This document shows positions 933-59,193 of a stretch of DNA of 59,252 bases, in pieces. The stretch's first letter is position 1; each line of letters begins with the position of its first letter. Origin of the DNA: a virus; IMG/VR virus record IMGVR_UViG_3300042975_000012, one strand, 5' to 3'. The notes under the pieces were generated by a model that worked only from the letters and a program-made list of their open reading frames with translations, was not told the origin of the DNA and did no database searches. The translations under genes were made by a program, and so were the position numbers.

Positions 933-3869
933 CTAATCATTGATACGGGCTATAGTTGATGCACTAACCTCCAACATGTCAGCGATGTCCGCCTGAGTAT
1001 AACCATTAGCCAACATAGACTTAGCTCTGGCTATCTTAGCATCACTCAGTCCTTGAGACTGATGGGGCATGGATAGTTCAGTAAGCTTATCTACATTAGC
1101 ATTGGCTACTATCTCTTTCATCATGTTGTTTGTAATAGCACCCGCCTGTATTGCTTCCCATTCAAGAGGGGTAATAGGATTATCTTTAGACCCTATATCT
1201 CTCTTAGATGCCCCTACATCTACACGAGCCTGGGCTAGGCATTGACCACGAAGTTTGCTCTTATGCTCACTATCCATGTTCTTGTTAGCCTCTAACTTTG
1301 TTTTATATACGGCATACCCGAGTGACTGTGCCTGCCGTTCAAGGGGCTTCTTGGAATAGGCCACCTTAATCTTAGCCCGTAGGCTTTCCACCTGGGGGGC
1401 ATACTTCTTAGCAGACTGGGGGGAGTATGTTAACTTAAGGGTGGGGTCTATCATAGCGAGACGGGCCTCGTTACCTAGAGCCTTTAACTTATTAGCATGC
1501 TCGGCATAGATGTTCTCTATAGGATAGTTTCCTTTAGAGATGAGGGTACGAGCATCTGTTGCTTCAGCCATCTTAGAGGACTTAGTCATACGTGTTATAG
1601 TACGTCCAGTCTTCTCCATAATAACTCTACCAGTCTTAGGGTTAATACGATCTGTCTTACGAAGCTCATCATAGGTAGAACCAGTATTACGATAGATGTA
1701 ACGTCCAGTCTTGGGATCTATAGGACCAACTGTCTTATAGTAGATCTTCTTACCAGTACGAGAATCTATCTTACCATCTGTCTCATTAACTTTCTGCAAT
1801 CGACGTTCAGGAATGAGGACCTGAGATTTTGCTTTAGAGATAAGAGTAGATGAACCATGCTTTGTTTTACCATTGGCACCAAGTCCATTATCCTGATACT
1901 CATTCTGAAGACTCTTGATATTAAGTTCAGTCTTAGCTCTACGATAATCAAGATTATGCTTGACCGCATCAATAACAACCATAGAATACTTAGTAGCTCG
2001 AGTTAGTTCCTCGGGACTGGCACCCTTGATTGTCATATCAGTAATAAGATTAGACGCGATACCCATTTCTTTCTGTTTAAACTTATCACCCATTGGTTTA
2101 GCTTTATAAACAGAAACTTTCTTTCCAGTCTTATCGGTTGTGTGACCGATAATAGGATTCGGATATGCATCTGATGGGTCAAAGTTCTTCAGTCCAGGTA
2201 GAGCAGGAGCAGTACGAAGGCCACGGTTGCCACCTTTGTTTGGAACTACAACTACAGAGTCACCATCGAAATCAGCACCAGAAAGCCGCTCAGCCACCTT
2301 ATGATTAATCCCCACCATATCTTTAGGATTCTTACCAACAGCTGCTATAGCAGGCTTAAACGTGTTATTAACAGTAAGTGTAGGAATCTCAAAGATACCA
2401 CCATGTGGGTAGCGAATAAGATTAACTACTTCACCATTCTGATAACCGGGTGCATATATTTCATTCTCCTTCATAGTGGGGAATGGAAGAATAACACGCT
2501 GACTTTGTCTTGGTAGAGCAGCAGCTTTCAAATGCACGGCATCCGAATCACAAGAATTTGAGAAGTTCTCTAACAATTTCTTTTTGATAACAGGATTTGT
2601 TAGTGAATTTATCTCATCAAATTGTGCACGCTTAATATCATAAGCTAATCCCAACTGACGTTTAGCTAAGACACTAGACTGTTTAGACAATACCTGTGAT
2701 GATATAGCTCGATGCCAATCACCCCAAGTACCTTCATCATTCACCTTATTCACTACAGCAAGATGGTCTTTACCATTCTTATCTTTGTAATGATATTGAC
2801 CGCCAGCCATGATAGTCGCACCGAATGGATTAGACATATCAATATCGCCAGCATCAGTCTTCTTCATAGGCTTGAGAACAGAACTATCTTTTCCACCAAG
2901 CATAGGAGTACCCTTATGCTTATTGGTATTGAATATAACATCGACACCAGGTGGGAAGTCAGCAGGGTCACCATACATGGCCATACCCTTAAGATAGTGG
3001 GTACCATCAACACCGATGCGAACCTGAGCATAATGGGATTTACCAAGTGATACATCGGCAACACCTGGTCTAATCTCCATTACACCATCTTTAGCTACGC
3101 CACCTTCTTCTGCATATCGAACTGATATACGCTTTGAAGATAAAGAAGTAGGAGGTTCAGCAGCCCAATAATCACCAGTACCATCTCTTTTATTAGTATG
3201 ACCGGGCAATGATATTTCATCTTGATGAGATATAACATCCTTATATGTAGTATCTGGTGGAGCAAGGACCTTTCGAGTGATAAACTTTCCAGGATTACCA
3301 AGTTCGGGAACCTTAACATAATGAACCGTATAACCTTGGTCCTTGAGCATGGTAATGGCTGAACTTAACTTGGTCGAAGATATCCCATATCCAACTTCAG
3401 TACCTTTACCGATGTCCAAATATGTTTTGGAATCGACATCAGCTTTGACTGCATCAACAGTCTTAGTGAGCTTGGCTTGCCTATCCTTATCATAAGGGAG
3501 CAGCATGTTGCGAACTGTACCACCAGAGACATTAAGTTGTTCAGCAATATTGTCAACCGAATATCCTTTAGCTTTCAGCTTAAGAACTTGATCGCGATTA
3601 TATTGCATCATATAATCTTTGCCAATAGTGGTGTTGTCCCGCAAATATGCGATAGGAACATCAAAATGTTCAGCTATTTGTTTCTCACTAAGACCCGATT
3701 TTTTCAAATCCTGAATCTGTTTATAAACGCCAGTATAATGTTGCGCAGCATCTTCACCAGACATCCAAGGAAATCTTCCAGAATGTGGAATAAGTCCTTC
3801 ATGCGGGCGCCCGGAATGTGCGATATAGTCATCTGACTCGTCTATCATATATAATTCGTCAGAAGTCAT
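933..3869 (-). CDS. Single-polypeptide two-barrel RNA polymerase candidate (YonO-like) with N-terminal and C-terminal HTH modules
   Basis: aa 484-545 VNLIRYPHGG...GINHKVAERLSGADFDGDSVVVVP matches the beta-prime catalytic DPBB (LNRAPTLHR...LHPLVxxAYNADFDGDQMAVHVP); DFDGD is encoded at 2259..2273. aa 284-320 GVDGTHYLKGMAMYGDPADFPPGVDVIFNTN resembles the beta DPBB (GRHGNKGV...EDMP...VDIVLNPL). HTH-like segments at aa 58-80, 101-123 and 955-977. ATG at 3869 has RBS AAGGA. Confidence 0.6.
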   Translation of the reverse strand: MTSDELYMIDESDDYIAHSGRPHEGLIPHSGRFPWMSGEDAAQHYTGVYKQIQDLKKSGLSEKQIAEHFDVPIAYLRDNTTIGKDYMMQYNRDQVLKLKAKGYSVDNIAEQLNVSGGTVRNMLLPYDKDRQAKLTKTVDAVKADVDSKTYLDIGKGTEVGYGISSTKLSSAITMLKDQGYTVHYVKVPELGNPGKFITRKVLAPPDTTYKDVISHQDEISLPGHTNKRDGTGDYWAAEPPTSLSSKRISVRYAEEGGVAKDGVMEIRPGVADVSLGKSHYAQVRIGVDGTHYLKGMAMYGDPADFPPGVDVIFNTNKHKGTPMLGGKDSSVLKPMKKTDAGDIDMSNPFGATIMAGGQYHYKDKNGKDHLAVVNKVNDEGTWGDWHRAISSQVLSKQSSVLAKRQLGLAYDIKRAQFDEINSLTNPVIKKKLLENFSNSCDSDAVHLKAAALPRQSQRVILPFPTMKENEIYAPGYQNGEVVNLIRYPHGGIFEIPTLTVNNTFKPAIAAVGKNPKDMVGINHKVAERLSGADFDGDSVVVVPNKGGNRGLRTAPALPGLKNFDPSDAYPNPIIGHTTDKTGKKVSVYKAKPMGDKFKQKEMGIASNLITDMTIKGASPEELTRATKYSMVVIDAVKHNLDYRRAKTELNIKSLQNEYQDNGLGANGKTKHGSSTLISKAKSQVLIPERRLQKVNETDGKIDSRTGKKIYYKTVGPIDPKTGRYIYRNTGSTYDELRKTDRINPKTGRVIMEKTGRTITRMTKSSKMAEATDARTLISKGNYPIENIYAEHANKLKALGNEARLAMIDPTLKLTYSPQSAKKYAPQVESLRAKIKVAYSKKPLERQAQSLGYAVYKTKLEANKNMDSEHKSKLRGQCLAQARVDVGASKRDIGSKDNPITPLEWEAIQAGAITNNMMKEIVANANVDKLTELSMPHQSQGLSDAKIARAKSMLANGYTQADIADMLEVSASTIARIND

Positions 3870-3886
3870 CAAGTATCCTTATGTAG

Positions 3887-4879: not shown

Positions 4880-4884
4880 AGCGA

Positions 4885-4899
4885 ATATAGTGACTTTTT
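4885..4899 (-). promoter_or_regulatory. Motif B (AAAAAGTCACTATAT)
   Basis: RC reads AAAAAGTCACTATAT. One of 9-10 copies. Confidence 0.4.
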
Positions 4900-5784: not shown

Positions 5785-5838
5785 AAAATATAGTCCTTTT
5801 CAAAAAGTCACTATATTACGCCCACTTTTGTGGTCAAT
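5785..5838. promoter_or_regulatory. Back-to-back motif-B pair (imperfect minus copy, perfect plus copy) followed by a GCCCACTTTTGTGGTCA box
   Basis: aatatagtcctttt/caaaaagtcactatatt is a near-palindrome. The plus-oriented copy at 5803..5817 is opposite to all coding. Confidence 0.45.
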
Positions 5839-5960
5839 TTCAAAAACTTTTTATATGTGTTAAAACCCTATATATATTATTTTACTTAATAATTCTGTAA
5901 GTTTATAAAAAGGGGGTAATTTCTGGCCAAACTGGGCCTAAAAGGCCGTTTTTTGGCTCT

Positions 5961-6039
5961 AAAAGAGTATACTTGCGAGAGGAGTATACTTGCGAGAGCC
6001 CTTCTCGCAACTGTACTCTTCTCGCAAGTATACTCTTTT
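5961..6039. repeat. 79-bp composite palindrome: two direct copies of GAGTATACTTGCGAGA facing two inverted copies
   Basis: aaaagagtatacttgcgaga ggagtatacttgcgaga gccc ttctcgcaactgtactc ttctcgcaagtatactctttt. Candidate origin or operator. Confidence 0.85.
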
Positions 6040-6075
6040 AGCACCTTTTTTGACCATTTTAGTCTACAAAAAATT

Positions 6076-6112
6076 AAAAAGTCACTATATTTTGCCCACC
6101 TTTCTGGCCACT
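6076..6112 (+). promoter_or_regulatory. Second plus-oriented motif B plus GCCCACCTTTCTGGCCA box
   Basis: ttaaaaagtcactatattttgcccacctttctggcca is a direct repeat of the 5801..5838 unit. Confidence 0.45.
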
Positions 6113-8985: not shown

Positions 8986-9363
8986 TCAGATGCGTTTGAA
9001 ATGTAGTCCTCCGGCATCTGGTTTGATACCATTTATCTGCTGTGATATGGTTGAAGAACTCAGATCAAGTGCTTCTGCTGCTTTGTTCTGTGATGAATAT
9101 ACGTCTCCTGTTTCCAGGCACTGTACCACCCATGAAGGCGGTCCCTGACGACTGGATTCAACGGTATAGTTCAATACACCATTATTGATGGCGGGACTAG
9201 CAACGTTTTGGCTACCCATATCGATATCACCCATGGATATGCGGTCATCAATAGTGTTTTTACCAAGAATATAAGCACAAACACCAACTGCTACAACTAC
9301 TCCAGCTCCAATATACCACCACTTATATTGCTTCCAATGCTTCTTTATGGGTTCCTTGTCCAT
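8986..9363 (-). CDS. Membrane-anchored NUMOD1-like HTH protein, paralog 1 of 5
   Basis: Basic N-terminus, TM WWYIGAGVVVAVGVCAYILG, C-terminus VVQCLETGDVYSSQNKAAEALDLSSSTISQQINGIKPDAGGLHF. Confidence 0.6.
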   Translation of the reverse strand: MDKEPIKKHWKQYKWWYIGAGVVVAVGVCAYILGKNTIDDRISMGDIDMGSQNVASPAINNGVLNYTVESSRQGPPSWVVQCLETGDVYSSQNKAAEALDLSSSTISQQINGIKPDAGGLHFKRI

Positions 9364-9392: not shown

Positions 9393-9471
9393 GAAGCAGA
9401 GTTTTTCTTAAGTCCGCGCAATGCTAGGCTTAACAAGTCCGCGCAATGCCAGGCTTGATTGTCTCGGCTTC
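9393..9471 (-). ncRNA. Twin-repeat hairpin cassette E7b (putative structured RNA or attenuator)
   Basis: Outer arms gaagcagag/ctcggcttc. 22-nt direct repeats aagtccgcgcaatgcYaggctt at 9410..9431 and 9435..9456. The RC strand ends in a T14 run (9378..9392). Confidence 0.4.
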
Positions 9472-9491
9472 ATTATAAAAAGATCTCCTCT

Positions 9492-9544
9492 CAAGTACGT
9501 ATTAGCACAAATACTTGACAAGTGCGTATTAGCACAAACACTTG
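9492..9544 (-). ncRNA. Twin hairpins E7a: two adjacent 26-nt stem-loops with identical loops
   Basis: caagtA-cgtattagcacaaa-Tacttg and caagtG-cgtattagcacaaa-Cacttg. The only two differences between the copies are compensatory. Confidence 0.5.
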
Positions 9545-9549
9545 ATAAT

Positions 9550-9575
9550 CCTTTCACTATAGACTATGTATTTTT
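9550..9575 (-). promoter_or_regulatory. Motif A variant (-10 TATAGT)
   Basis: RC reads AAAAATACATAGTCTATAGTGAAAGG. Confidence 0.45.
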
Positions 9576-9970
9576 TACGCAGCCATACAAATGCGCTCAA
9601 AATGGAGACCTCCAGCATTATCTCTTAATCCGTTAAGAGTTTTAGATATATCGTTTGGTGAAACATTAAGCGCCTCTGCTGCTTTACTCTGTGACGAGAA
9701 TACCTCACCCGTTTCAAGACAGCGAACCACCCACGAAGGCGGTCCTTGTCTGTCGGCCTCGACAGTGTAGTTGAGAGTGCCAAGATTGACCATTTGCTGG
9801 GGATCGTGGTTATCATTGCCAACACTCATATCAACCTTGATGTTTGGCGTCTTTTGTCTAGTTAATACATATACTCCAACACCTACTACGACTCCAACCA
9901 CAACTCCTACTCCAACAGTAATATAGGTCTGCTTATACTTCTCCCAATGTATTTTGATTTTCTCGTTCAT
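9575..9970 (-). CDS. Membrane-anchored NUMOD1-like HTH protein, paralog 2 of 5
   Basis: TM ITVGVGVVVGVVVGVGVYVL. C-terminus VVRCLETGEVFSSQSKAAEALNVSPNDISKTLNGLRDNAGGLHF. Confidence 0.6.
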   Translation of the reverse strand: MNEKIKIHWEKYKQTYITVGVGVVVGVVVGVGVYVLTRQKTPNIKVDMSVGNDNHDPQQMVNLGTLNYTVEADRQGPPSWVVRCLETGEVFSSQSKAAEALNVSPNDISKTLNGLRDNAGGLHFERICMAA

Positions 9971-11294: not shown

Positions 11295-11406
11295 AATAAA
11301 CTCCTTTATATTTGGATATAACCCTTGACATGGAATTTCATAGTCTTTAATGTATCTATTGTTCCATTTTGTTGTTTGTTCATATCGTGTTCCTTTCACA
11401 AAAAAT

Positions 11407-11431
11407 ATAAAGCGCCATGTAGACGCTTTAT
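11407..11431 (-). terminator. Intrinsic terminator with CTACATGG apex
   Basis: RC reads ATAAAGCGTCTACATGGCGCTTTAT then ATTTTTT, running directly into the next RBS with no promoter between. Confidence 0.65.
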
Positions 11432-11645
11432 AGGTAATACTTACTTAAAAGTTTCTGGGAATTTCCCATATTTGCTATAATACTTCAGGAGTTTACGTCC
11501 TTGATACCTAAGCTTTGCATTTACCATCTATTCCTTGGTTTGATTCAAAGGATGTTCTGCATGTGCAATGTCCTTGCATATAAAGATGAACTTCTTGATA
11601 ATATTAGTTTCAGGCATGATAGTTCCTTTCAAAATTTACTTCTAT

Positions 11646-11682: not shown

Positions 11683-11775
11683 GAAGAAGTTGTATAGTTT
11701 TTAAATCCTAAAGTTAGCCCAATTACTCACCATAGGTCACGAGCCTAATTACTCGTTTTTCTATACAACTTCTTC
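11683..11775 (-). ncRNA. Twin-repeat hairpin cassette E3
   Basis: Perfect 15-bp outer arms gaagaagttgtatag/ctatacaacttcttc. Repeats agccYaattactc at 11716..11728 and 11742..11754. Inner ccta/tagg pairing. T-run on the RC strand. Confidence 0.45.
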
Positions 11776-11892: not shown

Positions 11893-11907
11893 AATTACTC
11901 CTCAATA

Positions 11908-11922
11908 ATATAGTGACTTTTT
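11908..11922 (-). promoter_or_regulatory. Motif B
   Basis: RC reads AAAAAGTCACTATAT, 17 nt before the ATG. Confidence 0.4.
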
Positions 11923-11928
11923 ATAAAA

Positions 11929-11953
11929 ATAAAGCGCCATGTAGACGCTTTAT
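11929..11953 (-). terminator. Intrinsic terminator with CTACATGG apex
   Basis: Identical sequence to 11407..11431. Confidence 0.65.
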
Positions 11954-11956
11954 CTT

Positions 11957-12190
11957 TTACTTAACTCGTTCAGTTATACCATTCTTCATAACTTGGTGTT
12001 CTCCAGTTTTAGTATTCACTAGATGATATGCACCCCCATCATCTACGTAGTCCTTAGTATTTTGCAGTGTATCATTGCTTCCTGCGAATGACAGCAGAAA
12101 ACCGATACAAGCAATAGCCCCAATACCGCATATAGTGTGGATGATTATCTTTACTAGTGAATCTTTTAGAGATTTCTTTGCCTTAGACAT
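11957..12190 (-). CDS. Small membrane protein (77 aa)
   Basis: TM IIIHTICGIGAIACIGFLLSFAG. RBS GAAAGGATTATC. Confidence 0.55.
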   Translation of the reverse strand: MSKAKKSLKDSLVKIIIHTICGIGAIACIGFLLSFAGSNDTLQNTKDYVDDGGAYHLVNTKTGEHQVMKNGITERVK

Positions 12191-12209: not shown

Positions 12210-12233
12210 TTTCACTATACACCATGTAAAAAA
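12210..12233 (-). promoter_or_regulatory. Motif A variant (-10 TATAGT)
   Basis: RC reads TTTTTTACATGGTGTATAGTGAAA. Confidence 0.5.
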
Positions 12234-12257
12234 TAGAGCGCCATGTAGACGCTCTAT
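12233..12257 (-). terminator. Intrinsic terminator with CTACATGG apex
   Basis: RC reads ATAGAGCGTCTACATGGCGCTCTAT then TTTTTT. Confidence 0.65.
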
Positions 12258-12263
12258 AGTTTA

Positions 12264-12545
12264 TTAGTCTTCAGAAACAATATTATCTGAAATACGATTT
12301 ATCATATAGTCTTGATAGTCATCAACAAGTCCTTTATCGTTAAGAAATTCGTTAAAATCATTTATTTTTTCCTGCAATGATATATTATTCAACGTTAATC
12401 CGACTGCTGCTCCTGCGACAATTACACTTGGAATTGAAACTGCTGCAACAACAATAGTCTTTTTGTTTCTAGTATACCAATCAGAAATTTTAGATTTGAT
12501 CGATTTCTTATCTTCAACGACTGTAAATTCAATATTTTCCGACAT
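12264..12545 (-). CDS. Single-pass membrane protein (93 aa), paralog of 29251..29550
   Basis: Shared layout: basic segment, TM, then L..GL.DDY..Y.I..I. Confidence 0.55.
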   Translation of the reverse strand: MSENIEFTVVEDKKSIKSKISDWYTRNKKTIVVAAVSIPSVIVAGAAVGLTLNNISLQEKINDFNEFLNDKGLVDDYQDYMINRISDNIVSED

Positions 12546-12595: not shown

Positions 12596-12610
12596 TATAC
12601 TGAGTGAAAA

Positions 12611-12635
12611 ATAGAGGACCATGTAGATCCTCTAT
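12611..12635 (-). terminator. Intrinsic terminator with CTACATGG apex
   Basis: RC reads ATAGAGGATCTACATGGTCCTCTAT then TTTT. Confidence 0.65.
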
Positions 12636-12662
12636 TTGTTAATTACTACTCTTGTCGTTATG

Positions 12663-14966: not shown

Positions 14967-15273
14967 GGTCTCTTCCTTCGGTATAATCTTCTATAAGTTC
15001 GGCTGTTGAATAAGTAGTTGATGGTAGAATTTCCTGAACTGTGAACAAGTCATTGTTCATATGAGAAAGATAAGTCACACAGAAAGTTCTAATAACGCCA
15101 TTCTGAGATCCTACGACTTCATAGTCATTGTAGAAACATAACCATTCATCATGGTCTATTTCTCGAATTTTTACCACTTGCTTGAAATAATCAAATGGCA
15201 CATCTCGAGAATATCCATAATTATCACTACTATTCATATAACTATAAACAGCAGCCAATACCAAGTCATCCAT
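14947..15273 (-). CDS. Hypothetical protein (108 aa), tandem paralog of 14694..14966
   Basis: See partner. RBS AAAGGAACAAATT. Confidence 0.55.
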   Translation of the reverse strand: MDDLVLAAVYSYMNSSDNYGYSRDVPFDYFKQVVKIREIDHDEWLCFYNDYEVVGSQNGVIRTFCVTYLSHMNNDLFTVQEILPSTTYSTAELIEDYTEGRDHGRIDS

Positions 15274-15289
15274 AATTTGTTCCTTTACA

Positions 15290-15304
15290 ATATAGTGACT
15301 TTTT
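15290..15304 (-). promoter_or_regulatory. Motif B
   Basis: RC reads AAAAAGTCACTATAT within TTTACAA...TTGTAAA flanks. Confidence 0.4.
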
Positions 15305-15317
15305 TGTAAAAAATAAA

Positions 15318-15412
15318 GAAGAAGTTGTAATGAATTTTATCCATTATCTCGCATACAATCACGCAAGATAAATCTCGCATACAATCACGCGATTTTTCAT
15401 TACAACTTCTTC
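15318..15412 (-). ncRNA. Twin-repeat hairpin cassette E1
   Basis: Perfect 17-bp outer arms gaagaagttgtaatgaa/ttcattacaacttcttc. 19-nt repeats atctcgcatacaatcacgc at 15346..15364 and 15372..15390. Inner ttatc/gataa pairing. RC tail TTTATTTTTT. Confidence 0.5.
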
Positions 15413-15432
15413 ATTATATGACATGTAAAAAA
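15409..15432 (-). promoter_or_regulatory. Motif A promoter-like element
   Basis: RC reads TTTTTTACATGTCATATAATGAAG. Confidence 0.55.
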
Positions 15433-15436
15433 TGTA

Positions 15437-15856
15437 CTAATTTCTCGAACCAAGGCCTATAATTTCAAAATGTTGACCTAGATAATCTGGTTTCGTTCCA
15501 TTGATAACTTTCGACAAATTAGCTCTGCTTACACCAAGATCTTCCGCAGCAGAACTAATACTATCCCAGATTTCACCCGTTTCAATGCATCGAACTATCT
15601 TAGATAGATGCCCTTGAAAATTGTTTTGGGTAATAGTTGAATTATTAATTATTGGAGAATTAGATATTGACTTTGCTTTAACGATCAGTTCTTGACCTGT
15701 ATCAGCAACATCAATCTTCTTTCCTATAATAATTCCAACTCCTATACTCAATGCAATCACTCCTGCTGAAATATAAACAGTCTTATACTGGTCGAAGTGG
15801 TCTCTAATTCTATCAAGTACAGAATCATACTCGTCTTCATCATTATTTTCAAACAT
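15437..15856 (-). CDS. Membrane-anchored NUMOD1-like HTH protein, paralog 3 of 5
   Basis: Acidic N-terminus, TM ISAGVIALSIGVGIIIG, C-terminus IVRCIETGEIWDSISSAAEDLGVSRANLSKVINGTKPDYLGQHF. Confidence 0.6.
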   Translation of the reverse strand: MFENNDEDEYDSVLDRIRDHFDQYKTVYISAGVIALSIGVGIIIGKKIDVADTGQELIVKAKSISNSPIINNSTITQNNFQGHLSKIVRCIETGEIWDSISSAAEDLGVSRANLSKVINGTKPDYLGQHFEIIGLGSRN

Positions 15857-15871
15857 AATTGTTCCTTTACA

Positions 15872-15886
15872 ATATAGTGACTTTTT
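15872..15886 (-). promoter_or_regulatory. Motif B
   Basis: RC reads AAAAAGTCACTATAT. Confidence 0.4.
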
Positions 15887-15899
15887 TGTAAAAAATAAA

Positions 15900-15980
15900 G
15901 AAGAAGTAGTAAATCCTAAGTCTCCCGCAATCGGGAAAAATAGGTAGCGTCCGCAATCGGATACAGTTTACTACTTCTTC
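15900..15980 (-). ncRNA. Twin-repeat hairpin cassette E2
   Basis: Perfect 14-bp outer arms gaagaagtagtaaa/tttactacttcttc. Repeats ccgcaatcgg at 15925..15934 and 15951..15960, each a mini-hairpin. Inner ccta/tagg pairing. Confidence 0.5.
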
Positions 15981-16000
15981 ATTATAGCGCATGTAAAAAA
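15977..16000 (-). promoter_or_regulatory. Motif A promoter-like element
   Basis: RC reads TTTTTTACATGCGCTATAATGAAG. Confidence 0.55.
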
Positions 16001-16004
16001 TGTA

Positions 16005-16412
16005 TTATTGTCGAGAGCCTACACCTAAGACTTCGAAATGCATTCCACCAGCGCTTTCACTATGTCCATTTATTACTTTTGAAATATCACTAGCTTTGAC
16101 ATCTAAGTCTTCTGCTGCTTCTCGAATACTAGGCCAGATTTCACCCGTTTCAATGCATCGAACTATCTTAGATAGATGCCCTTGAAAATTATTCTGAATC
16201 AAACTTCCGTTGTTGATAATAGCTTCTGTTGAATTGGATATAACATTTGTAGGAAGGTCGTGTGTATCAATCTTCTTTCCTATAATAATTCCAACTCCTA
16301 TACTCAATGCAATCACTCCTGCCGAAATATAAACAGTCTTATACTGGTCGAAGTGATCTTTGACTCTATCCAGTATAGAATCATACTCATCATCGTTATC
16401 ATTGTCAAACAT
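16005..16412 (-). CDS. Membrane-anchored NUMOD1-like HTH protein, paralog 4 of 5
   Basis: Real start is MFDNDNDDEY at 16412 behind AAAGGAACAATT. The N-terminal 50 aa are nearly identical to paralog 3. Confidence 0.6.
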   Translation of the reverse strand: MFDNDNDDEYDSILDRVKDHFDQYKTVYISAGVIALSIGVGIIIGKKIDTHDLPTNVISNSTEAIINNGSLIQNNFQGHLSKIVRCIETGEIWPSIREAAEDLDVKASDISKVINGHSESAGGMHFEVLGVGSRQ

Positions 16413-16427
16413 AATTGTTCCTTTACA

Positions 16428-16442
16428 ATATAGTGACTTTTT
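16428..16442 (-). promoter_or_regulatory. Motif B
   Basis: RC reads AAAAAGTCACTATAT. Confidence 0.4.
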
Positions 16443-16451
16443 GTAAAAAGT

Positions 16452-16472
16452 AAAGCACCATGTAGTGCTTTT
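16452..16472 (-). terminator. Intrinsic terminator with CTACATGG apex, about 75 nt downstream of a motif A
   Basis: RC reads AAAAGCACTACATGGTGCTTT then ACTTTTT. Confidence 0.6.
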
Positions 16473-16520
16473 AAATGTCCTCAATTGCTGTTAAGCGTCG
16501 GAGGGCAACCTTCCTATCTT

Positions 16521-16545
16521 CTTCATTATACAGTATGTAAAATTT
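16521..16545 (-). promoter_or_regulatory. Motif A promoter-like element
   Basis: RC reads AAATTTTACATACTGTATAATGAAG. Confidence 0.5.
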
Positions 16546-16548
16546 TTA

Positions 16549-16842
16549 CTATCGCCATGTGATGATATTATTATGTATCCGTTGGATATCGGAATCAGTC
16601 CATTCTGATAATTCGACATCATCCATCCAAGGATATGCAGACTTCAGTAACTCTGGAATATGACGCGTTGTCTTTTTACCGTCGATAACTATCATAACGA
16701 ATGGACCTTTTTTATTACGCCCTCGTGTATACATGGTCAACCGACGAACATCATGTTGTTTTGTTTCTGAATATACATTGCCATCCATATCGATGGTATA
16801 TCCGAAGCATTCCGGAATTGCTGCTGAATGTTCATATGACAT
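16549..16842 (-). CDS. NUMOD4-like small protein (97 aa)
   Basis: IPECFGYTIDMDGNVYS. TAATG overlap with the helicase gene. Confidence 0.4.
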   Translation of the reverse strand: MSYEHSAAIPECFGYTIDMDGNVYSETKQHDVRRLTMYTRGRNKKGPFVMIVIDGKKTTRHIPELLKSAYPWMDDVELSEWTDSDIQRIHNNIITWR

Positions 16843-27269: not shown

Positions 27270-27300
27270 TATTATTCCTATCTATTTGTTATTATCAAAA

Positions 27301-27327
27301 TTTAGAGGACCGTGTAGGCCCTCTAAA
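27301..27327 (-). terminator. Intrinsic terminator with CTACACGG apex
   Basis: RC reads TTTAGAGGGCCTACACGGTCCTCTAAA then TTTTG. Confidence 0.6.
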
Positions 27328-27338
27328 TATAACTTAAA

Positions 27339-28811: not shown

Positions 28812-29056
28812 TATTCTTGTCCTTTGATATTGCAATCTATATAATTGTCAACTACATGACAATTATATAGAGTCTCAGATTTGTCCTTGTAACTAAATTT
28901 CTCACCGGGCGCATATACTCGAGAGTAATATACTTCATCGTAGTCGTGCGCTTTGCTAGTATACAGGAAAAGTAGGGTGACAGTTGCTAGCAACAAAACA
29001 ACCCATGTAACTACAATAGTAATGGCAAGCCCCATATATTTTTTTGTTGGTTTCAT
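28811..29056 (-). CDS. Small N-terminally anchored membrane protein, paralog of 29667..29912
   Basis: ...ITIVVTWVVLLLATVTLLFLY..DYDEVYYSRVYAPGEKFSYK...YNCHV...DCNIKG vs the partner. MKGIIM artefact removed. Confidence 0.55.
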   Translation of the reverse strand: MKPTKKYMGLAITIVVTWVVLLLATVTLLFLYTSKAHDYDEVYYSRVYAPGEKFSYKDKSETLYNCHVVDNYIDCNIKGQE

Positions 29057-29088
29057 GATTATTCCTTTCAAATCATTTGTGAAAATAT

Positions 29089-29178
29089 GAAGAACTAGTA
29101 TTTATTAATCCTAAATCACGCTGACTCACGCAAGATAGGTAACACGCTGACTCACGCATATCTAAATATTAGTTCTTC
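29089..29178 (-). ncRNA. Twin-repeat hairpin cassette E4
   Basis: 16-bp outer arms gaagaactagtattta/taaatattagttcttc (1 mismatch). 16-nt repeats cacgctgactcacgca at 29117..29132 and 29143..29158. Inner ccta/tagg pairing. Confidence 0.45.
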
Positions 29179-29199
29179 ATTATAAGACATGTAATTTTT
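29175..29199 (-). promoter_or_regulatory. Motif A promoter-like element
   Basis: RC reads AAAAATTACATGTCTTATAATGAAG. Confidence 0.55.
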
Positions 29200-29220
29200 G
29201 CAATTTTACAAAGGCGAAAT

Positions 29221-29245
29221 ATACAGGACCGTGTAGGTCCTGTAT
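29221..29245 (-). terminator. Intrinsic terminator with CTACACGG apex
   Basis: RC reads ATACAGGACCTACACGGTCCTGTAT then ATTTCGCC; weak T tail. Confidence 0.5.
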
Positions 29246-29250
29246 ATCTT

Positions 29251-29550
29251 TTAAAAAGTCTTTACATCTTTTAGTTCCGTATTGATTTTATCAATAACAT
29301 ACTTACGATAATCATCTTCAAGACCTGTATTCAGAATAAAATCTTTTACGGAATCATATTGCACTTTTGTATTAATATAATGAGATCCAGCCATAATTGC
29401 TCCAACTGTTCCAGCGGTCACTATTACGCATAGTGCTGTTGCTTCAGCTGTTACTTTTATGGATTGTTCATTAGTTTTATACCAAGTTGCAAATTTATTC
29501 TTAAAAGATACTTTTTCTTTTTGATCTTCAATTTGAGTATTGTCAGTCAT
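29251..29550 (-). CDS. Single-pass membrane protein (99 aa), paralog of 12264..12545
   Basis: MKGNIM leader artefact removed. See partner. Confidence 0.55.
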   Translation of the reverse strand: MTDNTQIEDQKEKVSFKNKFATWYKTNEQSIKVTAEATALCVIVTAGTVGAIMAGSHYINTKVQYDSVKDFILNTGLEDDYRKYVIDKINTELKDVKTF

Positions 29551-29585
29551 GATATTTCCTTTCATAGAAATTTATAATGATAGTA

Positions 29586-29609
29586 CTTCATTATAAGGTA
29601 TGTAATTTC
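29586..29609 (-). promoter_or_regulatory. Motif A promoter-like element
   Basis: RC reads GAAATTACATACCTTATAATGAAG. Confidence 0.5.
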
Positions 29610-29666
29610 TATAGTTATCGATATCAATATTGAGGACTATGGGATTATCCGAATATAGTATTCGTA

Positions 29667-29912
29667 TTAACGACTAGTACCTTTCATATTGCAATCAAGG
29701 TTTTCTTTGGTGACTGTACAGTTAAACAAAGTGTCTGCACCATTTCGAAAGCTGAACTTCTCACCAGGTTCATATGTACGATGGTAATATACCGAATCAT
29801 AATCATTACTTTTATCTAAATATAGGTATGCCAGCGTAGCGGTTGAGCCAAGCAGTACAATCCATGTTACGATGAGAGTGATTGCCGTAGTGATATATTT
29901 ATTGTTTTTCAT
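29667..29912 (-). CDS. Small N-terminally anchored membrane protein, paralog of 28811..29056
   Basis: See partner. Confidence 0.55.
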   Translation of the reverse strand: MKNNKYITTAITLIVTWIVLLGSTATLAYLYLDKSNDYDSVYYHRTYEPGEKFSFRNGADTLFNCTVTKENLDCNMKGTSR

Positions 29913-29988
29913 CTTTATTTCTGCCTTTCAATATTACAAATGACATGATCTTCAGTTACTTTACTAATATATTATATGTAAAAATAAT

Positions 29989-30077
29989 GAAGAACTAGTA
30001 AAAGATATCCTTAAAATGCATTAATACGCATAATAAGGGGAAGCGTTAATACGCTTGGTCCCAATTACTAGTTCTTC
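29989..30077 (-). ncRNA. Twin-repeat hairpin cassette E5
   Basis: Perfect 13-bp outer arms gaagaactagtaa/ttactagttcttc. Repeats gcRttaatacgc at 30018..30029 and 30043..30054. Inner cctta/taagg pairing. Confidence 0.5.
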
Positions 30078-30097
30078 ATTATAGAATATGTAAAAAA
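30074..30097 (-). promoter_or_regulatory. Motif A promoter-like element
   Basis: RC reads TTTTTTACATATTCTATAATGAAG. Confidence 0.55.
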
Positions 30098-30101
30098 TAA
30101 T

Positions 30102-30201
30102 GAAGAATTAGTAATTCCTAAAATATCCTCAAAATACGTCTGAGACGCGTTATGAGGGGGGGCGTCTGAGACGCGCGGTCCTAAAGGATTACTAATTCTT
30201 C
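30102..30201 (-). ncRNA. Twin-repeat hairpin cassette E6 (directly upstream of E5 in transcription order)
   Basis: 17-bp outer arms gaagaattagtaattcct/aggattactaattcttc (1 bulge). Palindromic repeats cgtctgagacgcg at 30137..30149 and 30163..30175. Inner cctca/tgagg pairing. Confidence 0.5.
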
Positions 30202-30222
30202 ATTATAAGACATGTAATTTTT
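30198..30222 (-). promoter_or_regulatory. Motif A promoter-like element
   Basis: RC reads AAAAATTACATGTCTTATAATGAAG. Confidence 0.55.
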
Positions 30223-30226
30223 GTAC

Positions 30227-30637
30227 TCAGCCTGATGTAAGACCCAAAGCTTTGAAGTGTAATCCATTAGTACTTTCTTTGTGTCCGTTTATAACTTTGG
30301 ATATATTATTAATAGGAATACCCAAATCTTCAGCTGCCTCAGTTATGCTAGACCAAATTTGACCCGTTTCAATACATTGTACAATCTTTCGCTGTCGACC
30401 AGTAAAAGTATTATTTATTATGGTCGAATTATCTCCCGAAACCGTAAAGATTTTAATTTTAGACTCAACGTTATCTTCGACGTTAATTGTTGGGATGGTT
30501 TTTTGATGTTCATTCAAATGAAAATAGATGCCAATACCAACAATAACTATGGCACCGATACTCAAGCAATAATCTTTCCAATGCTCTTGAAAATGAGTCG
30601 TAACTTTATCTATAGTTGTTTCTGTTTTCTCATCCAT
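30227..30637 (-). CDS. Membrane-anchored NUMOD1-like HTH protein, paralog 5 of 5
   Basis: TM LSIGAIVIVGIGIYF. C-terminus IVQCIETGQIWSSITEAAEDLGIPINNISKVINGHKESTNGLHF. MKGIIM artefact removed. Confidence 0.6.
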   Translation of the reverse strand: MDEKTETTIDKVTTHFQEHWKDYCLSIGAIVIVGIGIYFHLNEHQKTIPTINVEDNVESKIKIFTVSGDNSTIINNTFTGRQRKIVQCIETGQIWSSITEAAEDLGIPINNISKVINGHKESTNGLHFKALGLTSG

Positions 30638-30668
30638 AATAATTCCTTTCAATATAATAGATAAAAAA

Positions 30669-30752
30669 AAGAAGATGTTGTAAGGAGTGACGAACTCTTA
30701 CAACAGCGGTTTCGTTTAGGAAACTACATTCGCATCACACTGTTATCTTCTT
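30669..30752 (-). ncRNA. Leader hairpin cassette E8 (two different inner hairpins, no twin repeat) followed by a T8 run
   Basis: Outer aagaagat/atcttctt. Inner gttgtaag/cttacaac (8 bp) and gtttc/gaaac. Confidence 0.4.
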
Positions 30753-30774
30753 CATTATAGAGTATGTATTTTTT
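30750..30774 (-). promoter_or_regulatory. Motif A promoter-like element
   Basis: RC reads AAAAAATACATACTCTATAATGAAG. Confidence 0.55.
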
Positions 30775-30797
30775 GTACTTTTGTAGCAAACAAAAAA

Positions 30798-30820
30798 TGA
30801 AGTGCTTTGTAAACACTTCA
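30798..30820 (-). terminator. Intrinsic terminator (loop TTTACAAAG shared with 6146..6170)
   Basis: tgaagtg-ctttgtaaa-cacttca. The RC strand is followed by TTTTTTG. Confidence 0.6.
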
Positions 30821-39235: not shown

Positions 39236-40150
39236 TTATAGATCCTTCCAATCATACTGAAATATAACACTAGTCTCTGGGACAGTATTAACTCGAAAAT
39301 CAATTTCCGTCCATTTTGTTGTGGCCAAATCAGTCCAGCGTTTGGTTGTCATTAGTTCTTTCCATGATCTCGGAGCATTTGGTGTGTCATAGTTGAGTCG
39401 CTGAATATCATCCCAGCGTTTATTTTTGGCATCACCCCAAGTCATAGCCAAAGTCGTTCCTTCTGCAAGTTCGGACCATACAACACTATTCAGTTCATAA
39501 CTGTTTATATAAATATTGTTATAGCCTTCTTCGAACAGCACATCATTAAGCCTATAGGATCCACCACCAAAACGAGTTACCTTATTATTGAATTGAACAC
39601 TGCATGGACGTGTGCATTCGATAACGGGATGCACCTTCTTGCGACCGGAGGGAAGTCGGAACATCTTACCACCGGTAGCATTCAAACGGAAAGTCATTCT
39701 ACCCTTGGATTTATAAGGATCGGCATCCACTTTTATCTTGAAGGAGCCAAGGATCCCGGATGAATATGCCTCATGAGAGTTTTCCTCTATGGTAAACCGT
39801 CCATGATATATATATCCGGGATCCATGGTAAGTCTATAATCGAAGGCTCTGCCATGAATATAGTTACTTACCTCAGTCTTTCGCTCTTCGAATGTGCGCT
39901 CATCCTCCAAATCAGGAACCACCATAGTGAATTCCTGATTTCGATTCTTGTAGGCAGTATCACCCATAAGGGCTTCCGTCAGATCAATATTGCCATCACC
40001 ACCGGGGATATCAACCGAATAAGTCTTTGGCTCCGGTGGATCAAGCGTATACCCATCCAATAGAATAAGCTGGAAGCGGACAGTCAGATCCACTTCAGTT
40101 CCATCTTTTATCAGGATAATCCGATTATCCGGATAATTAGGATAACTCAT
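39236..40150 (-). CDS. Distal tail protein (Dit)
   Basis: About 300 aa, immediately after the tape measure with a 4-nt overlap. Confidence 0.55.
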   Translation of the reverse strand: MSYPNYPDNRIILIKDGTEVDLTVRFQLILLDGYTLDPPEPKTYSVDIPGGDGNIDLTEALMGDTAYKNRNQEFTMVVPDLEDERTFEERKTEVSNYIHGRAFDYRLTMDPGYIYHGRFTIEENSHEAYSSGILGSFKIKVDADPYKSKGRMTFRLNATGGKMFRLPSGRKKVHPVIECTRPCSVQFNNKVTRFGGGSYRLNDVLFEEGYNNIYINSYELNSVVWSELAEGTTLAMTWGDAKNKRWDDIQRLNYDTPNAPRSWKELMTTKRWTDLATTKWTEIDFRVNTVPETSVIFQYDWKDL

Positions 40151-52382: not shown

Positions 52383-53657
52383 CTATGCTGGTGTATCCGG
52401 TCCTTCCTCTTTAATTGGAGTAGAAGAATCTTGTGTCTCATCAATGCCATGAGTAGACTTATCTAGAGGCATATTAGGATTGATGAGAGAGTTTGCAGCA
52501 TCGGACTGTACAGCCTTCTTAAGAAGGACAGCACGAGCTTCATTACCAGTAAGAATTTGATTACGAATCATCTTATCAAAGACATCACCAAGGTCCTTGA
52601 TAGATACTAAGGCGAATGGATCTTGGAAGTACTTGATTCGTTGGCCACTATTATAAGCTCGGGTGGTCAAGAATGCAAATTCAAGACCCTGAGTTATAAC
52701 AGACAGAATTGGTTCGATTGTTCGATGCTGATAATTTTGGATGACATCAGTGCTTGCTGAACCATTCATAATTTCAGGAGTGATGCCAAGTTCTGTATAC
52801 AAATTAGTCATCAATGTGGCAACTTGGGGTGCGATAGCATTCCCAAGCGGTCGATTTAACTGAGTAATTTTATCAGAGCTTGAAGCATAAGCAACACCAT
52901 ACTTATTGGAATTAAGTTGGTCTGTAAGAAGTTTTATCTTCTTTCCAGCTTCTCGTTCCAAAGCATCAGAGCGAACATTGAATGGGAACTGCATAATAAT
53001 GTCAAGTTTATTAGCACCGATTGATTCATCATACTGGTCCATTAATGTCAACTTACGAAGAAGTCGTGTTACCGTTGAATTATTCTCATTCATTACTGAA
53101 TAAAAAGGATTCTCAAGTATAGCAACCTTATTCTTAGCGAATACCAAATCTTCGAAATTACCACTTCGATCATTATACAAGTTAAGTCTAACATGCTGTG
53201 GTAGCCATTCAACGATTCTACCAATACGCATAGATTGAATATCAAACGACGATTCGCCGCCGTGAGTATTCACTTCACTGGTAGTATCAATAGGCGCAAT
53301 AGCAACATTTCCTTCATCAAACAAGGAAAGAACTAAATCTTGAATAAAAGCTTGAGATGTCTGATCTACATTAGGACGTAATGTAAGACAACGATTTAAC
53401 GATGATGGAATGTCACCAGAATAATTGTCATACTCATCTAGTTGTACATGTCTGAAATCCTGTATAGCACAATCCAATGCTATACGATTATAGATTGCTG
53501 CAATAATAGACCGCTCACGAGTACTAGCTCGTCCTTCTTGATATGGGGCATAACCAGAAGCCCCATAATCGTAAAAAGAAGAATTAGTGTCAGTCGGCGA
53601 CTTATTTTTGAATGCGTTCCAAGCATTCTTAAGTCTATCGGTTAAAGGTTCTGTCAT
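52383..53657 (-). CDS. Portal protein
   Basis: About 425 aa between TerL-side genes and the protease-capsid gene. ATG 53657 forms an ATGA overlap with the upstream stop; the track start 53681 is a TTG. Confidence 0.65.
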   Translation of the reverse strand: MTEPLTDRLKNAWNAFKNKSPTDTNSSFYDYGASGYAPYQEGRASTRERSIIAAIYNRIALDCAIQDFRHVQLDEYDNYSGDIPSSLNRCLTLRPNVDQTSQAFIQDLVLSLFDEGNVAIAPIDTTSEVNTHGGESSFDIQSMRIGRIVEWLPQHVRLNLYNDRSGNFEDLVFAKNKVAILENPFYSVMNENNSTVTRLLRKLTLMDQYDESIGANKLDIIMQFPFNVRSDALEREAGKKIKLLTDQLNSNKYGVAYASSSDKITQLNRPLGNAIAPQVATLMTNLYTELGITPEIMNGSASTDVIQNYQHRTIEPILSVITQGLEFAFLTTRAYNSGQRIKYFQDPFALVSIKDLGDVFDKMIRNQILTGNEARAVLLKKAVQSDAANSLINPNMPLDKSTHGIDETQDSSTPIKEEGPDTPA

Positions 53658-54205: not shown

Positions 54206-54208
54206 AAG

Positions 54209-54745: not shown

Positions 54746-54757
54746 ACAAAATATCCT

Positions 54758-56518: not shown

Positions 56519-56533
56519 TATGAGCTATCCCTC

Positions 56534-56971: not shown

Positions 56972-56989
56972 TATATCATCTTTCCATAC

Positions 56990-58935: not shown

Positions 58936-59193
58936 TTACAAAGAAATATCTTCTAACTTTGCACGAAGTTCAAGAACTTCCAAATATTCTTTCATAGACT
59001 TAAGTTGTTTCTCAAGAGCAGCAGTTCCAGACTTCAACTCGAAATCTAATTTCCCTTCTTTGCTTTTCTTAAGCGTCTCTTCAAGAGCCTGCGAGCGCCG
59101 ACTTAGCTCATAGACCTCACCTTTGAACCGCTCTTTGTAATCAGAACTCAGAATAAGCGGAACAATAGTCTTCCAATCGGTTGGATAAGCCAT
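58936..59193 (-). CDS. Hypothetical coiled-coil protein (85 aa)
   Basis: ORF with RBS AAAGGAATCTATT. Its 5' part lies in the terminal overlap. Confidence 0.55.
   Translation of the reverse strand: MAYPTDWKTIVPLILSSDYKERFKGEVYELSRRSQALEETLKKSKEGKLDFELKSGTAALEKQLKSMKEYLEVLELRAKLEDISL

Follow-up and report, generated by a model that had tools for sequence, protein, structure and literature searches.

In type III toxin-antitoxin systems (ToxIN, AbiQ, CptIN), a promoter, direct RNA repeats of 34-45 nt, a terminator and a gene form one unit, and the RNA is paired with a protein gene. Short inverted-repeat units beside the gene of a helix-turn-helix (HTH) DNA-binding protein are found in sopC-sopB and parS-parB and in the operator autorepression of I-TevI. 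The nut/boxB sites of phage lambda and the put sites of HK022, each genome having more than one, are short hairpins just past early promoters that are recognised in the nascent RNA and act on the transcribing polymerase. The p16.7 protein of Bacillus phage phi29, which is anchored in the membrane and binds DNA, organises the phage DNA there; its binding is not sequence-specific, and it is not known to have partner repeats. Here we describe eight small cassettes, each with two near-identical hairpins inside a long closing stem, in a complete siphovirus-type phage genome of 59,252 bases (IMG/VR record IMGVR_UViG_3300042975_000012; the whole stretch analysed is called the window). They usually lie directly behind genes for small HTH proteins with one transmembrane helix (TM-HTH proteins), and the two cassettes between positions 15290 and 16000, E1 and E2, serve as the main examples.

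These cassettes share something with each of the described systems. As in ToxIN, AbiQ and CptIN, there is a promoter, a pair of direct repeats, a terminator-like end and a gene; however, the repeats have a period of 25-27 nt instead of 34-45 nt, the partner is an upstream TM-HTH gene and not a ToxN-type RNase, and the genes downstream are heterogeneous and interchangeable, with no match to a toxin in Pfam, PHROGs or PADLOC. The sopC and parS sites are similar in being short inverted-repeat units next to an HTH gene, whereas the units described here lie within a structured, self-terminating transcription unit with covariation at the RNA level, and their protein is membrane-anchored. A likeness to lambda nut/boxB may be seen in short hairpins just past a promoter; no boxA, GNRA-like loop or N-like protein was seen in the window, and the cassettes are pairs of identical hairpins inside a terminator-like stem which differ from site to site. 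TM-HTH proteins resemble p16.7 in their build, with a membrane helix at the N-terminus that a linker connects to a small C-terminal domain (~50-60 residues) for nucleic-acid binding, and in being encoded in an early or accessory phage region, although no sequence or fold match to p16.7 was found. Finally, TFIIIA and the 5S RNA gene offer an analogy, and only that, for candidate protein sites that lie inside the body of a small-RNA gene, so that one sequence exists in both DNA and RNA form; the proteins involved are unrelated and come from another domain of life.

The cassettes represent a new structured RNA family with a conserved protein partner, and the known kinds nearest to it are phage small-RNA genes and repeat sites paired with an HTH gene. 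Our favoured, composite reading is that every cassette serves as a dedicated gene for one small RNA, with twin hairpins that match the HTH protein encoded next to it; we hold it with about as much doubt as confidence. The family is absent from Rfam and tied to the protein family phrog_27818, and such conserved gene-RNA pairs usually mark a real mechanism.

Structure and covariation of the twin-hairpin cassettes

The initial annotation had listed eight cassettes, and all of them are present on the minus strand (E7a was measured as 9555-9477), in the layout proposed there: TATAAT, stem, two copies of a cassette-specific unit, 3' arm. Each cassette begins at the base after TATAAT, is closed by a long stem and, except for E7a, ends in a T-run. 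The copy-to-copy periods are 26, 26, 26, 26, 25, 26, 27 and 25 nt, and thus within the range of 25-27 nt that had been claimed. All coordinates of cassettes, promoters and TM-HTH genes given below refer to the minus strand of the window.

The RNA body of E1 (15318..15412, 95 nt) is closed by a stem of 17 bp, GAAGAAGTTGTAATGAA/TTCATTACAACTTCTTC, which we call P1, and contains a hairpin 1 of 7 bp and a hairpin 2 of 12 bp, the latter including UUAUC/GAUAA. Copy 1 of its twin unit, GCGTGATTGTATGCGAGAT, lies at 15372..15390 and an identical copy 2 at 15346..15364 (period 26), and the T-run TTTATTTTTT (15308..15317) stands directly 3' of the stem. The minimum free energy (MFE) of E1 is -41.5 kcal/mol (z -7.9), and it scores 82.2 bits with the covariance model described below. 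E2 (15900..15980, 81 nt) has a P1 of 14 bp (GAAGAAGTAGTAAA/TTTACTACTTCTTC), a hairpin 1, and a CCUA/UAGG helix around hairpin 2. Its copy 1, CCGATTGCGG (15951..15960), is a hairpin with an AUUG loop, and its copy 2, CCCGATTGCGGGAG (15922..15935), is the same hairpin with one additional base pair (CCGATTGCGG at 15934-15925; period 26). The same T-run, TTTATTTTTT (15890..15899), adjoins the 3' arm of E2, whose MFE is -37.3 kcal/mol (z -7.9) and whose covariance model score is 89.3 bits.

Fold, covariance model and repeat period also identify E3 (11683..11775; twins GAGTAATTAGGCT and GAGTAATTGGGCT), E4 (29089..29178; twin TGCGTGAGTCAGCGTG) and E5 (29989..30077; twins GCGTATTAACGC and GCGTATTAATGC). 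In E6 (30102..30201; twin CGCGTCTCAGACG) the T-run runs into the promoter of E5, and two complete units of promoter, RNA and T-run thus stand in tandem, the first of them, E6, without a gene of its own. The remaining two are of a somewhat different build. E7a (9477..9555) folds into two abutting 27-nt hairpins with a short closing stem, GAAAGGAU/AUCUUUUU, and has orthologues in five loci of relatives (L167 and L197-L200; L-numbers denote relatives' loci, the close relatives having been gathered via the helicase and the HTH proteins). E7b (9393..9471) has the closing stem GAAGC/GCUUC and the twin AAGCCTRGCATTGCGCGGACTT followed by a T-run, and an orthologue in L200. A U-tract, as expected of a terminator, follows the stem as TTTATTTTTT in E1 and E2, CTCTCTTTTTTT in E3, ATTATTTTT in E5 and E6 and TTTTTTTT in E7b; in E4 it is only ATATTTTCAC.

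RNAfold predicts E1-E6 as three-way junctions, in which P1 has 13-17 bp, hairpin 1 corresponds to copy 1 and hairpin 2 to copy 2, the latter being mounted on a base helix of 4-5 bp (CCUA/UAGG, UUAUC/GAUAA, CCUUA/UAAGG or CCUCA/UGAGG). Compared with dinucleotide shuffles, the folding z-scores range from -4.4 to -8.6 for E1-E6 and are -3.1 for E7a and -1.8 for E7b. The interior thus holds two copies as first described, but it is not an open loop: each copy is itself a small hairpin within the junction. RNAalifold recovered all four helices, i.e., P1, hairpin 1, the CCUA/UAGG helix and hairpin 2, from nine cassettes (six of the window and three of the relative L198) that MAFFT had aligned without guidance. 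The covariation is strong. In the alignment made with a covariance model (R1), 88.4% of cells are in standard pairs, compared with 37-56% if the partners are slid by 1-3 columns; both-side changes occur in 10 of the 20 pairs, and neither the observed paired fraction nor the covariation score was reached in any of 500 shuffles. The model scores the sense strand of the cassettes with 41-89 bits and the antisense strand with at most 28 bits. The compensatory changes claimed for the outer stem are therefore supported, as are those in the second short helix around one copy and, in addition, in both hairpins, and the proposal of a selected single-strand structure that displays two like sequences holds.

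One of the original statements has to be abandoned, namely that the repeats of different cassettes are unrelated. They are related by a loose GCGUGAUUG/AUUG(C/G)G consensus: the MAFFT consensus of the cassettes is GCGTGATTnnGCG...ACCTAT.TTGCGTGATTG.GCGTG..TTAGGAT, and AUUG(C/G)G is met again in the loops of the E1, E2, E3 and E7b hairpins as well as in distant relatives. No extra or antisense copy of any twin unit was found elsewhere in the window with up to 3 mismatches allowed, and a base-pairing target within the phage is therefore not evident. Note that a Shine-Dalgarno-like (U)AGGAU is conserved 3' of hairpin 2 in E1-E6 (e.g., 15913-15918 in E2), where it is half buried in the CCUA/UAGG helix; a start codon is absent after it, and E7a has an unpaired GAGGAG at the equivalent place.

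The initial annotation could match the cassettes to no element class, and our searches agree with this. There was no Rfam match at gathering thresholds in the whole window, and permissive filters gave only chance-level matches for 15250-16050 and 28900-30800 (E 0.6-10, far below gathering). Neither a tRNA nor a transfer-messenger RNA was found in the window by ARAGORN or Rfam RF00005; the same tools call tRNAs in the corresponding frame of relatives (see below). As regards CRISPR arrays, a comparison confined to the window itself showed units of 10-27 nt that follow each other at 25-27 nt without spacer-sized gaps. Searches for further members were restricted in yield as well. The pattern TATAATGAAGAA-N50-80-GGAT-N5-30-TTCTTC had 25 matches in IMG/VR, all rejected as chance (coding or unstructured, no T-run, no twins); a stricter pattern had 0 matches in metagenome contigs, among which the window's own phage was not included; and a strict hairpin and twin scan of 163 loci returned only the window cassettes plus two chance matches. 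Model R1 found no member in 80 relatives with ~50% identical helicases (1.1 Mb) nor in Lactococcus phage P118 (L196). The E-type family is therefore confined to close kin, and each lineage has its own versions.

The promoter and expression frame

A fixed motif does precede the cassettes, as the initial annotation had it, but it is longer than TATAAT and is not a plain sigma-70 -10 box. This promoter A, aTTTTTACATnnnnTATAAT followed by GAAgaA, has 20 copies in the window, all on the minus strand and restricted to two accessory regions, 31.1-27.5 kb and 16.5-4.8 kb (sites between 31096 and 4858). The copy in front of E2, ATACATTTTTTACATGCGCTATAAT, spans 15981..16008, with TATAAT at 15986-15981 and no -35 box at the sigma-70 spacing; in the copy in front of E1 (15413..15440) the upstream element overlaps the stop codon of the preceding TM-HTH gene. 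What follows promoter A is either a short leader directly into a ribosome-binding site (GAAGAACTATGAAAGGAATTATCATG), or a stem with the G after TATAAT as its first base and TTCTTC at the end of its 3' arm, mostly followed by a T-run. Closing-stem hairpins of the second kind that lack twins are found behind further promoters at 30753, 6710 and 4858, and ambiguous ones at 16524 and 28467 (3-5 in all).

The sigma-70 polymerase starts ~7 nt after the -10 hexamer and uses a -35 hexamer 16-18 bp upstream of it. None of the promoter A copies within 15200-16600 has a -35 partner in a promoter scan, and the conserved upstream element TTACAT is 4 bp from TATAAT, not 17. The frame of relatives is informative in this respect. 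A scan of IMG/VR with the promoter pattern revealed many contigs of 55-58 kb in which TTCGCAGAAATTACATnnnnTATAAT stands directly before tRNA or tRNA-like genes, and some of the contigs bearing this promoter and tRNA frame encode distant homologues of the window's replication proteins. The tRNAs in this frame have the acceptor stem GAAGAAG/CTTCTTC with a T-run immediately after it, and their 5' end lies 1-2 nt past TATAAT (ARAGORN, Rfam). A sigma-70-type start would cut off the acceptor strand of these tRNAs and the 5' arm of P1, and from this geometry we infer that the RNA starts at or next to the G after TATAAT. The arrangement of TTTTTACATnnnnTATAAT directly followed by GA does not fit sigma-70 and points to a phage polymerase promoter.

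Relatives' tRNA genes (e.g., tRNA-Met in L021) share with the cassettes the promoter, the GAAGAAG/CTTCTTC ends, the T-run and the tandem arrangement, but their interior is a cloverleaf, whereas that of the cassettes consists of two like hairpins on a three-way junction. In L003, L055 and many other IMG/VR loci, the frame also holds tRNA-like genes with a 6-nt anticodon loop (called 'tRNA-???' by ARAGORN) beside a normal tRNA-Met; a tRNA-like cassette used as a blastn query had no match among GenBank phages. More distant phages have the frame too. Phage P118 possesses ~10 copies of TTTTACATACCCTATAAT followed by GA, some of which lead into GAGAG...CTCTC stems and T-runs, and the promoter of Arthrobacter phage Qui (L206), TCGCAGAATTTACACCGCGTATAAT followed by GAGA, also occurs with closing-stem hairpins. 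The frame of promoter, stem, returning stem and T-run is thus a general device of this phage family for small stable RNAs, which in relatives are tRNAs. Promoter A is found with coding genes of relatives as well: three tandem micro-genes for membrane peptides of 43-47 aa, each with its own promoter A and terminator, are present in L202 (3367-3998) and L203 (967-1598).

A candidate enzyme for this promoter is encoded in the same genome. The gene at 933..3872 (minus strand) encodes a protein of 979 aa, which judged by its sequence (full-length match to phrog_4291 with 1031 bits, catalytic motif DFDGD) is a single-subunit two-barrel RNA polymerase of the YonO/crAss type and has HTH domains at both of its termini. 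It is the final gene of the genome and adjoins the structural module on the circular map. YonO-like polymerase has been noted as the signature gene of a supercluster of actinobacteriophages together with Lactococcus and Faecalibacterium phages (bioRxiv 10.1101/842583). Promoter A may be read by this 979-aa polymerase. It is a candidate promoter for a YonO-like polymerase with terminal HTH domains, and the cassettes are ready short templates.

Behind most cassettes there is a further promoter-like element before the next gene. Motif B (AAGTCACTATATT) has exactly 7 copies in the window. At E2, motif B (ACAAAAAAGTCACTATATTGTAAAGGAAC) together with the ribosome-binding site of the next gene occupies 15859..15889 between the T-run and that gene, and motif B in the form ACAAAAAGTCACTATATTGTAAAGGAAC was likewise seen between cassette T-runs and the next ribosome-binding site at 15277-15307, 15859-15889, 16415-16445, 11907-11919 and 4884-4896. 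Motif B may be a second class of promoter.

Membrane-anchored HTH genes and the proposed partner of the cassettes

The window encodes five TM-HTH paralogues of 125-139 aa, each with one transmembrane helix and a C-terminal HTH domain similar to I-HmuI/NUMOD (phrog_27818). Four of them have promoter A and a twin cassette directly behind them, with the stop codon overlapping the upstream element of the promoter: the 139-aa protein (15437..15856; PF22083, phrog_27818) is followed by E1, the 135-aa protein (16005..16412, ATG at 16412) by E2, the 131-aa protein (9575..9970) by E7a and E7b, and the 136-aa protein (30227..30637) by E6 and E5. The fifth (125 aa, 8986..9363) is located downstream of E7b and is the only paralogue in the window without a cassette behind it. 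An AlphaFold model of the C-terminal domain of the 131-aa protein (predicted local distance difference test, pLDDT, ~94) is I-HmuI/I-TevI-like, with the DNA-binding protein 8b6e, I-HmuI (1u3e) and I-TevI (1i3j) as best structural matches; a sequence search of the PDB with TM-HTH gave a single weak match, again 8b6e. No close homologue of the 139-aa protein was found in IMG/VR, a TM-HTH profile search of genome contigs returned no relative, a promoter pattern search of the same kind of contigs had 4 scattered matches that are probably due to chance, and we found no paper describing these RNAs or the TM-HTH family.

The linkage of TM-HTH gene and cassette extends beyond the window. In close relatives, promoter and cassette stand immediately behind 11 of the 12 TM-HTH genes. 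A direct repeat of at least 12 nt (period 18-40) occurs within 230 nt downstream of 14 of 21 non-redundant TM-HTH open reading frames (ORFs), compared with 425 of 10,090 other ORF ends; the odds ratio is 45 and the Fisher p-value 6e-15, which overstates independence, as many of the 21 ORFs are related. The suggestion that the cassettes are paired sites for the adjacent HTH proteins thereby gains strong contextual support (repeats follow only 4% of the other ORF ends), and repeated sites beside the gene of a binding protein are kept in phage Qui and in L208. In Qui, gp172 is a TM-HTH protein with 36% identity, and its gene is followed by the promoter and an 11-bp P1; the cassette contains three CAUUGCG hairpins, two of which are twins 26 nt apart with compensating flanks, and ends in the 3' arm of P1, ATTATTTTTT and the next promoter. 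L208, a phage of 51% G+C, has the same layout of TM-HTH gene and cassette. The linkage is thus tight and ancient and spans phages of Firmicutes-like and actinobacterial hosts. As Qui is cultured, its gp172 gene with the cassette just downstream is a testable system. The number of hairpins varies in relatives (three in the cassettes of L204, four copies through a duplicated inner unit in L202, one in some); a further apparent cassette at position 10120 of L204 was rejected, as it lies within HTH coding sequence and encodes a peptide repeat.

The two copies of a cassette change together, and they change along with the protein. The E7a twins are two copies of GUGCUAAUACG in the window, two of GCGCUAAUGCG in L167 and L199, and two of ACGCUAAUGUG in L197, L198 and L200, and the recognition helix of the upstream protein reads ..ISKTLNG in the window (KT), ..ISLSLNG in L167 (LS) and ..(I/V)SCQLNG in L197, L198 and L200 (CQ). 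In L199, where E7a is only the second cassette, behind another one with twins, it has YQ. The two copies of E7b each retain their own closing pair (C..G and U..A) although their inner segment has been exchanged in both, and differences between the copies of one cassette are often compensatory, e.g., CAAGUG/CACUUG vs CAAGUA/UACUUG. This co-change fits a requirement that both hairpins match one partner.

Comparison of genomes with 98-100% identical helicases (L164, L165, L166 and L193 against window 15330-16404) showed that TM-HTH gene and cassette are present or absent as whole modules. The 98%-identical L166 equals the window minus the module of the 139-aa HTH gene and E1. Identical copies of E2 occur in L164, L166 and L193, with a different downstream gene in L164 and L166; in L164 another promoter is fused directly to E2, which there precedes a gene for 108 aa. 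L198 has an interior identical to that of E1 in the slot that holds E3 in the window. The modules are joined within the repeated promoter and within motif B (AAGTCACTATATT). Assemblies and contigs of this phage often end in the cassette region, and these repeats, as recombination joints, may explain such contig breaks.

From these observations we propose the following scheme. Transcription from the phage-family promoter (TTTTTACATnnnnTATAAT) would begin with the G of GAAGAA or a base beside it. P1 would form by pairing of the initial and the final 13-17 nt of the transcript and, with the U-run behind it, would double as terminator. Discrete RNAs of ~80-110 nt, terminating at P1, would result. 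Between the arms the RNA would form the two near-identical hairpins, the second on its short covarying base helix, and thus a three-way junction. The twin hairpins would be the specificity element of the gene-RNA pair, changing in step with the recognition helix of the protein, and the twin units may be recognised, on RNA or on duplex DNA, by two molecules of the HTH protein encoded next to them, or by its dimer. Protein and unit would make up a single accessory module, and recombination at the promoter and motif B would account for its gain, loss and reshuffling. Candidate roles are the exclusion of rival phages, the tethering of phage nucleic acid at the membrane, and the timing of accessory genes. 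Of the four possibilities raised in the initial annotation, that of small RNAs (~90-115 nt) is the best supported, by the own promoter and T-run, the E6/E5 tandem and the tRNAs in the relatives' frame; attenuators and decoys, taken up below, are less probable.

Several observations weigh against this scheme. The start site and the termination are predicted from geometry. P1 is AT-rich and encloses a branched interior of 50-70 nt, and is thus not the short G+C-rich hairpin of ordinary terminators; a simple terminator consensus scan misses it and calls an ordinary terminator at 16471-16452. In some cassettes (E4 and the second cassette of L198, C2) the hairpins pair largely via G-U. E3 and E4 follow genes for other small membrane proteins, with no HTH gene upstream, and the same is true of E1 in L198 and of E2 in L164 in that no HTH gene precedes them; conversely, two TM-HTH genes have no cassette (8986-9363 in the window and one in L207). 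Gene conversion and the physical linkage of the cassette with the 3' end of the gene could by themselves produce the co-variation of recognition helix and twins, which moreover was seen in a small set of phylogenetically related phages. Finally, the C-terminal domain of the partner models as a fold that binds duplex DNA, which favours recognition on DNA rather than RNA.

The last point leads to the best of the alternatives, in which the cassettes are sites on duplex DNA only, either paired operators or centromere-like tethers for the upstream HTH protein, with the outer stem as the terminator of the upstream gene and the inner helices compacting the loop. Such sites would suit an HTH domain that is structurally a homing-endonuclease DNA-binding module, they would adjoin its gene directly, and the units are short inverted repeats as for dimer sites, spaced 25-27 bp. 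The asymmetry between the strands is weak, too. In 21 cassettes compared, the sense strand folds better than the antisense strand in 16 (totals -645 vs -545 kcal/mol), with 73 vs 28 G-U pairs; however, when MFE structures with 74 vs 30 G-U pairs were set against shuffles of the same composition, the shuffles already yielded 86 vs 54, so that the remaining excess is modest (p ~0.03). In the cells of the consensus helices, G-U outnumbers A-C by 21 to 8 (p ~0.01 against 1:1). We dropped strand asymmetry as strong proof of RNA, because composition-matched shuffles account for much of it, and regard it as suggestive only. Other features argue that the transcript matters. The CCUA/UAGG-type base helix around copy 2, with five covarying variants, has no rationale at the DNA level; C1 and C2, the internal cassettes of the triple array in L198, both lack a T-run and still retain the pairing of P1; hairpins of the E4 type are not DNA palindromes and pair only through G-U; and there are complete units that have no gene, such as E6 with the promoter of E5 directly after it, as well as tRNAs in the same frame of relatives. 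Moreover, a dedicated consensus promoter reads through the sites, and the genome holds no further copies of the units. We consider DNA sites alone unlikely. Both a DNA and a transcript reading may hold at once, as the same sequence is gene and product.

The L198 array just mentioned (2835-3090) consists of three tandem cassettes after one TM-HTH gene. The first two are without a T-run and the last two without TACAT, two of the three contain hairpin pairs whose members have become different, and the array is probably one transcript with three junction domains.

Less probable still is an explanation without any ligand, in which the cassettes are RNA devices that set downstream expression as 5' stabilisers and/or leaky terminators, and the twins are filler maintained by duplication and gene conversion. 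The closing-stem hairpins without twins before genes of the window (30753, 6710, 4858) and in P118 speak for it, as does the four-copy inner unit of L202. Stabilisers of this type in Firmicutes must start at the RNA 5' end, and P1 begins exactly at the predicted one. Such devices leave unexplained, however, the linkage to TM-HTH genes across phyla, the recurring AUUG(C/G)G loop, and E6 as a unit without a gene behind it; nor do they fit the change of the inner segment of E7b in both copies with each closing pair kept.

We regard as improbable that the cassettes are decoys or sponges, independent of the HTH protein, for a factor of the host or of a rival phage, such as a dimeric RNA-binding nuclease, a type III toxin, a CRISPR repeat-binding protein or a tRNA-targeting defence. 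Their position in accessory regions of fast turnover, where 99%-identical phages differ, and their hypervariability would fit an arms race, and the tRNA-like RNAs with odd anticodon loops in the relatives' frame could be seen in the same light. But periods of 25-27 nt appear to match neither CRISPR repeats nor the 34-45 nt of type III antitoxin repeats, no toxin, defence or cas-like neighbour was found (Pfam, PHROGs, PADLOC), and the TM-HTH linkage would again be unexplained. Selfish elements of the type of miniature inverted-repeat transposable elements, spread within the genome, can practically be discounted in spite of a size of 80-100 bp, terminal inverted repeats (GAAGAA...TTCTTC), multiple copies and shifts between intergenic slots, since the ends always coincide with TATAAT of the promoter and the T-run, there are no target-site duplications and no transposase, the arms differ in sequence yet stay complementary, i.e., selection acts on pairing and not on a transposase site, and the movement is explained by homologous recombination at promoter and motif B.

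Returning to the small-RNA gene with a matched HTH protein, it may be combined with the promoter findings into a wider proposal. The phages with YonO-like polymerases would then possess a new two-part module, composed of a membrane-anchored HTH protein of the homing-endonuclease type and its cognate twin-hairpin small RNA, read on the gene and/or the transcript and present as many orthogonal pairs per genome, and TTTTTACATnnnnTATAAT followed by G would be the promoter of the HTH-fused two-barrel polymerase, with the start right after TATAAT. This joint reading is tentative, and as a whole we would not yet expect it to be correct.

Other features of the genome

All genes of the window are on the minus strand, and their products include a terminase, a portal protein, a prohead protease, a Prophage_tail protein, an amidase, a primase-polymerase and a helicase. 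No close relative at the DNA level was found among GenBank phages by megablast with 9-17 kb of the window and with the locus of a relative. An exact terminal direct repeat of 211 bp (1-211 and 59042-59252) is either a true terminal redundancy or an overlap from the assembly of a circular sequence.

Several other repeats are present. The ORF at 40147-47529, a tape-measure-like gene for 2460 aa, contains tandem repeats at 42115-43014 and 43774-44920, comprising five of 150 bp and a series with a periodicity of 183 bp. Repeats of 77-88 nt (54105-57640) are common to small genes that flank the large terminase gene on both sides; these genes (53654-54205, 54209-54745 and 56990-57661) are paralogues. 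A gap of 450 bp without genes harbours a palindrome of ~90 bp (5950-6045) with four copies of GAGTATACTTGCGAGAG, two direct and two inverted, which lies between the only two plus-strand copies of motif B (5805-5817 and 6079-6091) and could be an origin or a divergent control region. Finally, seven ordinary G+C-rich terminators (11402-11438, 11924-11960, 12228-12264, 12606-12642, 16445-16481, 27297-27333 and 29216-29252) share their stem and also the loop, CUACAUGG/CUACACGG on the sense strand, and a conserved loop is unusual for terminators.

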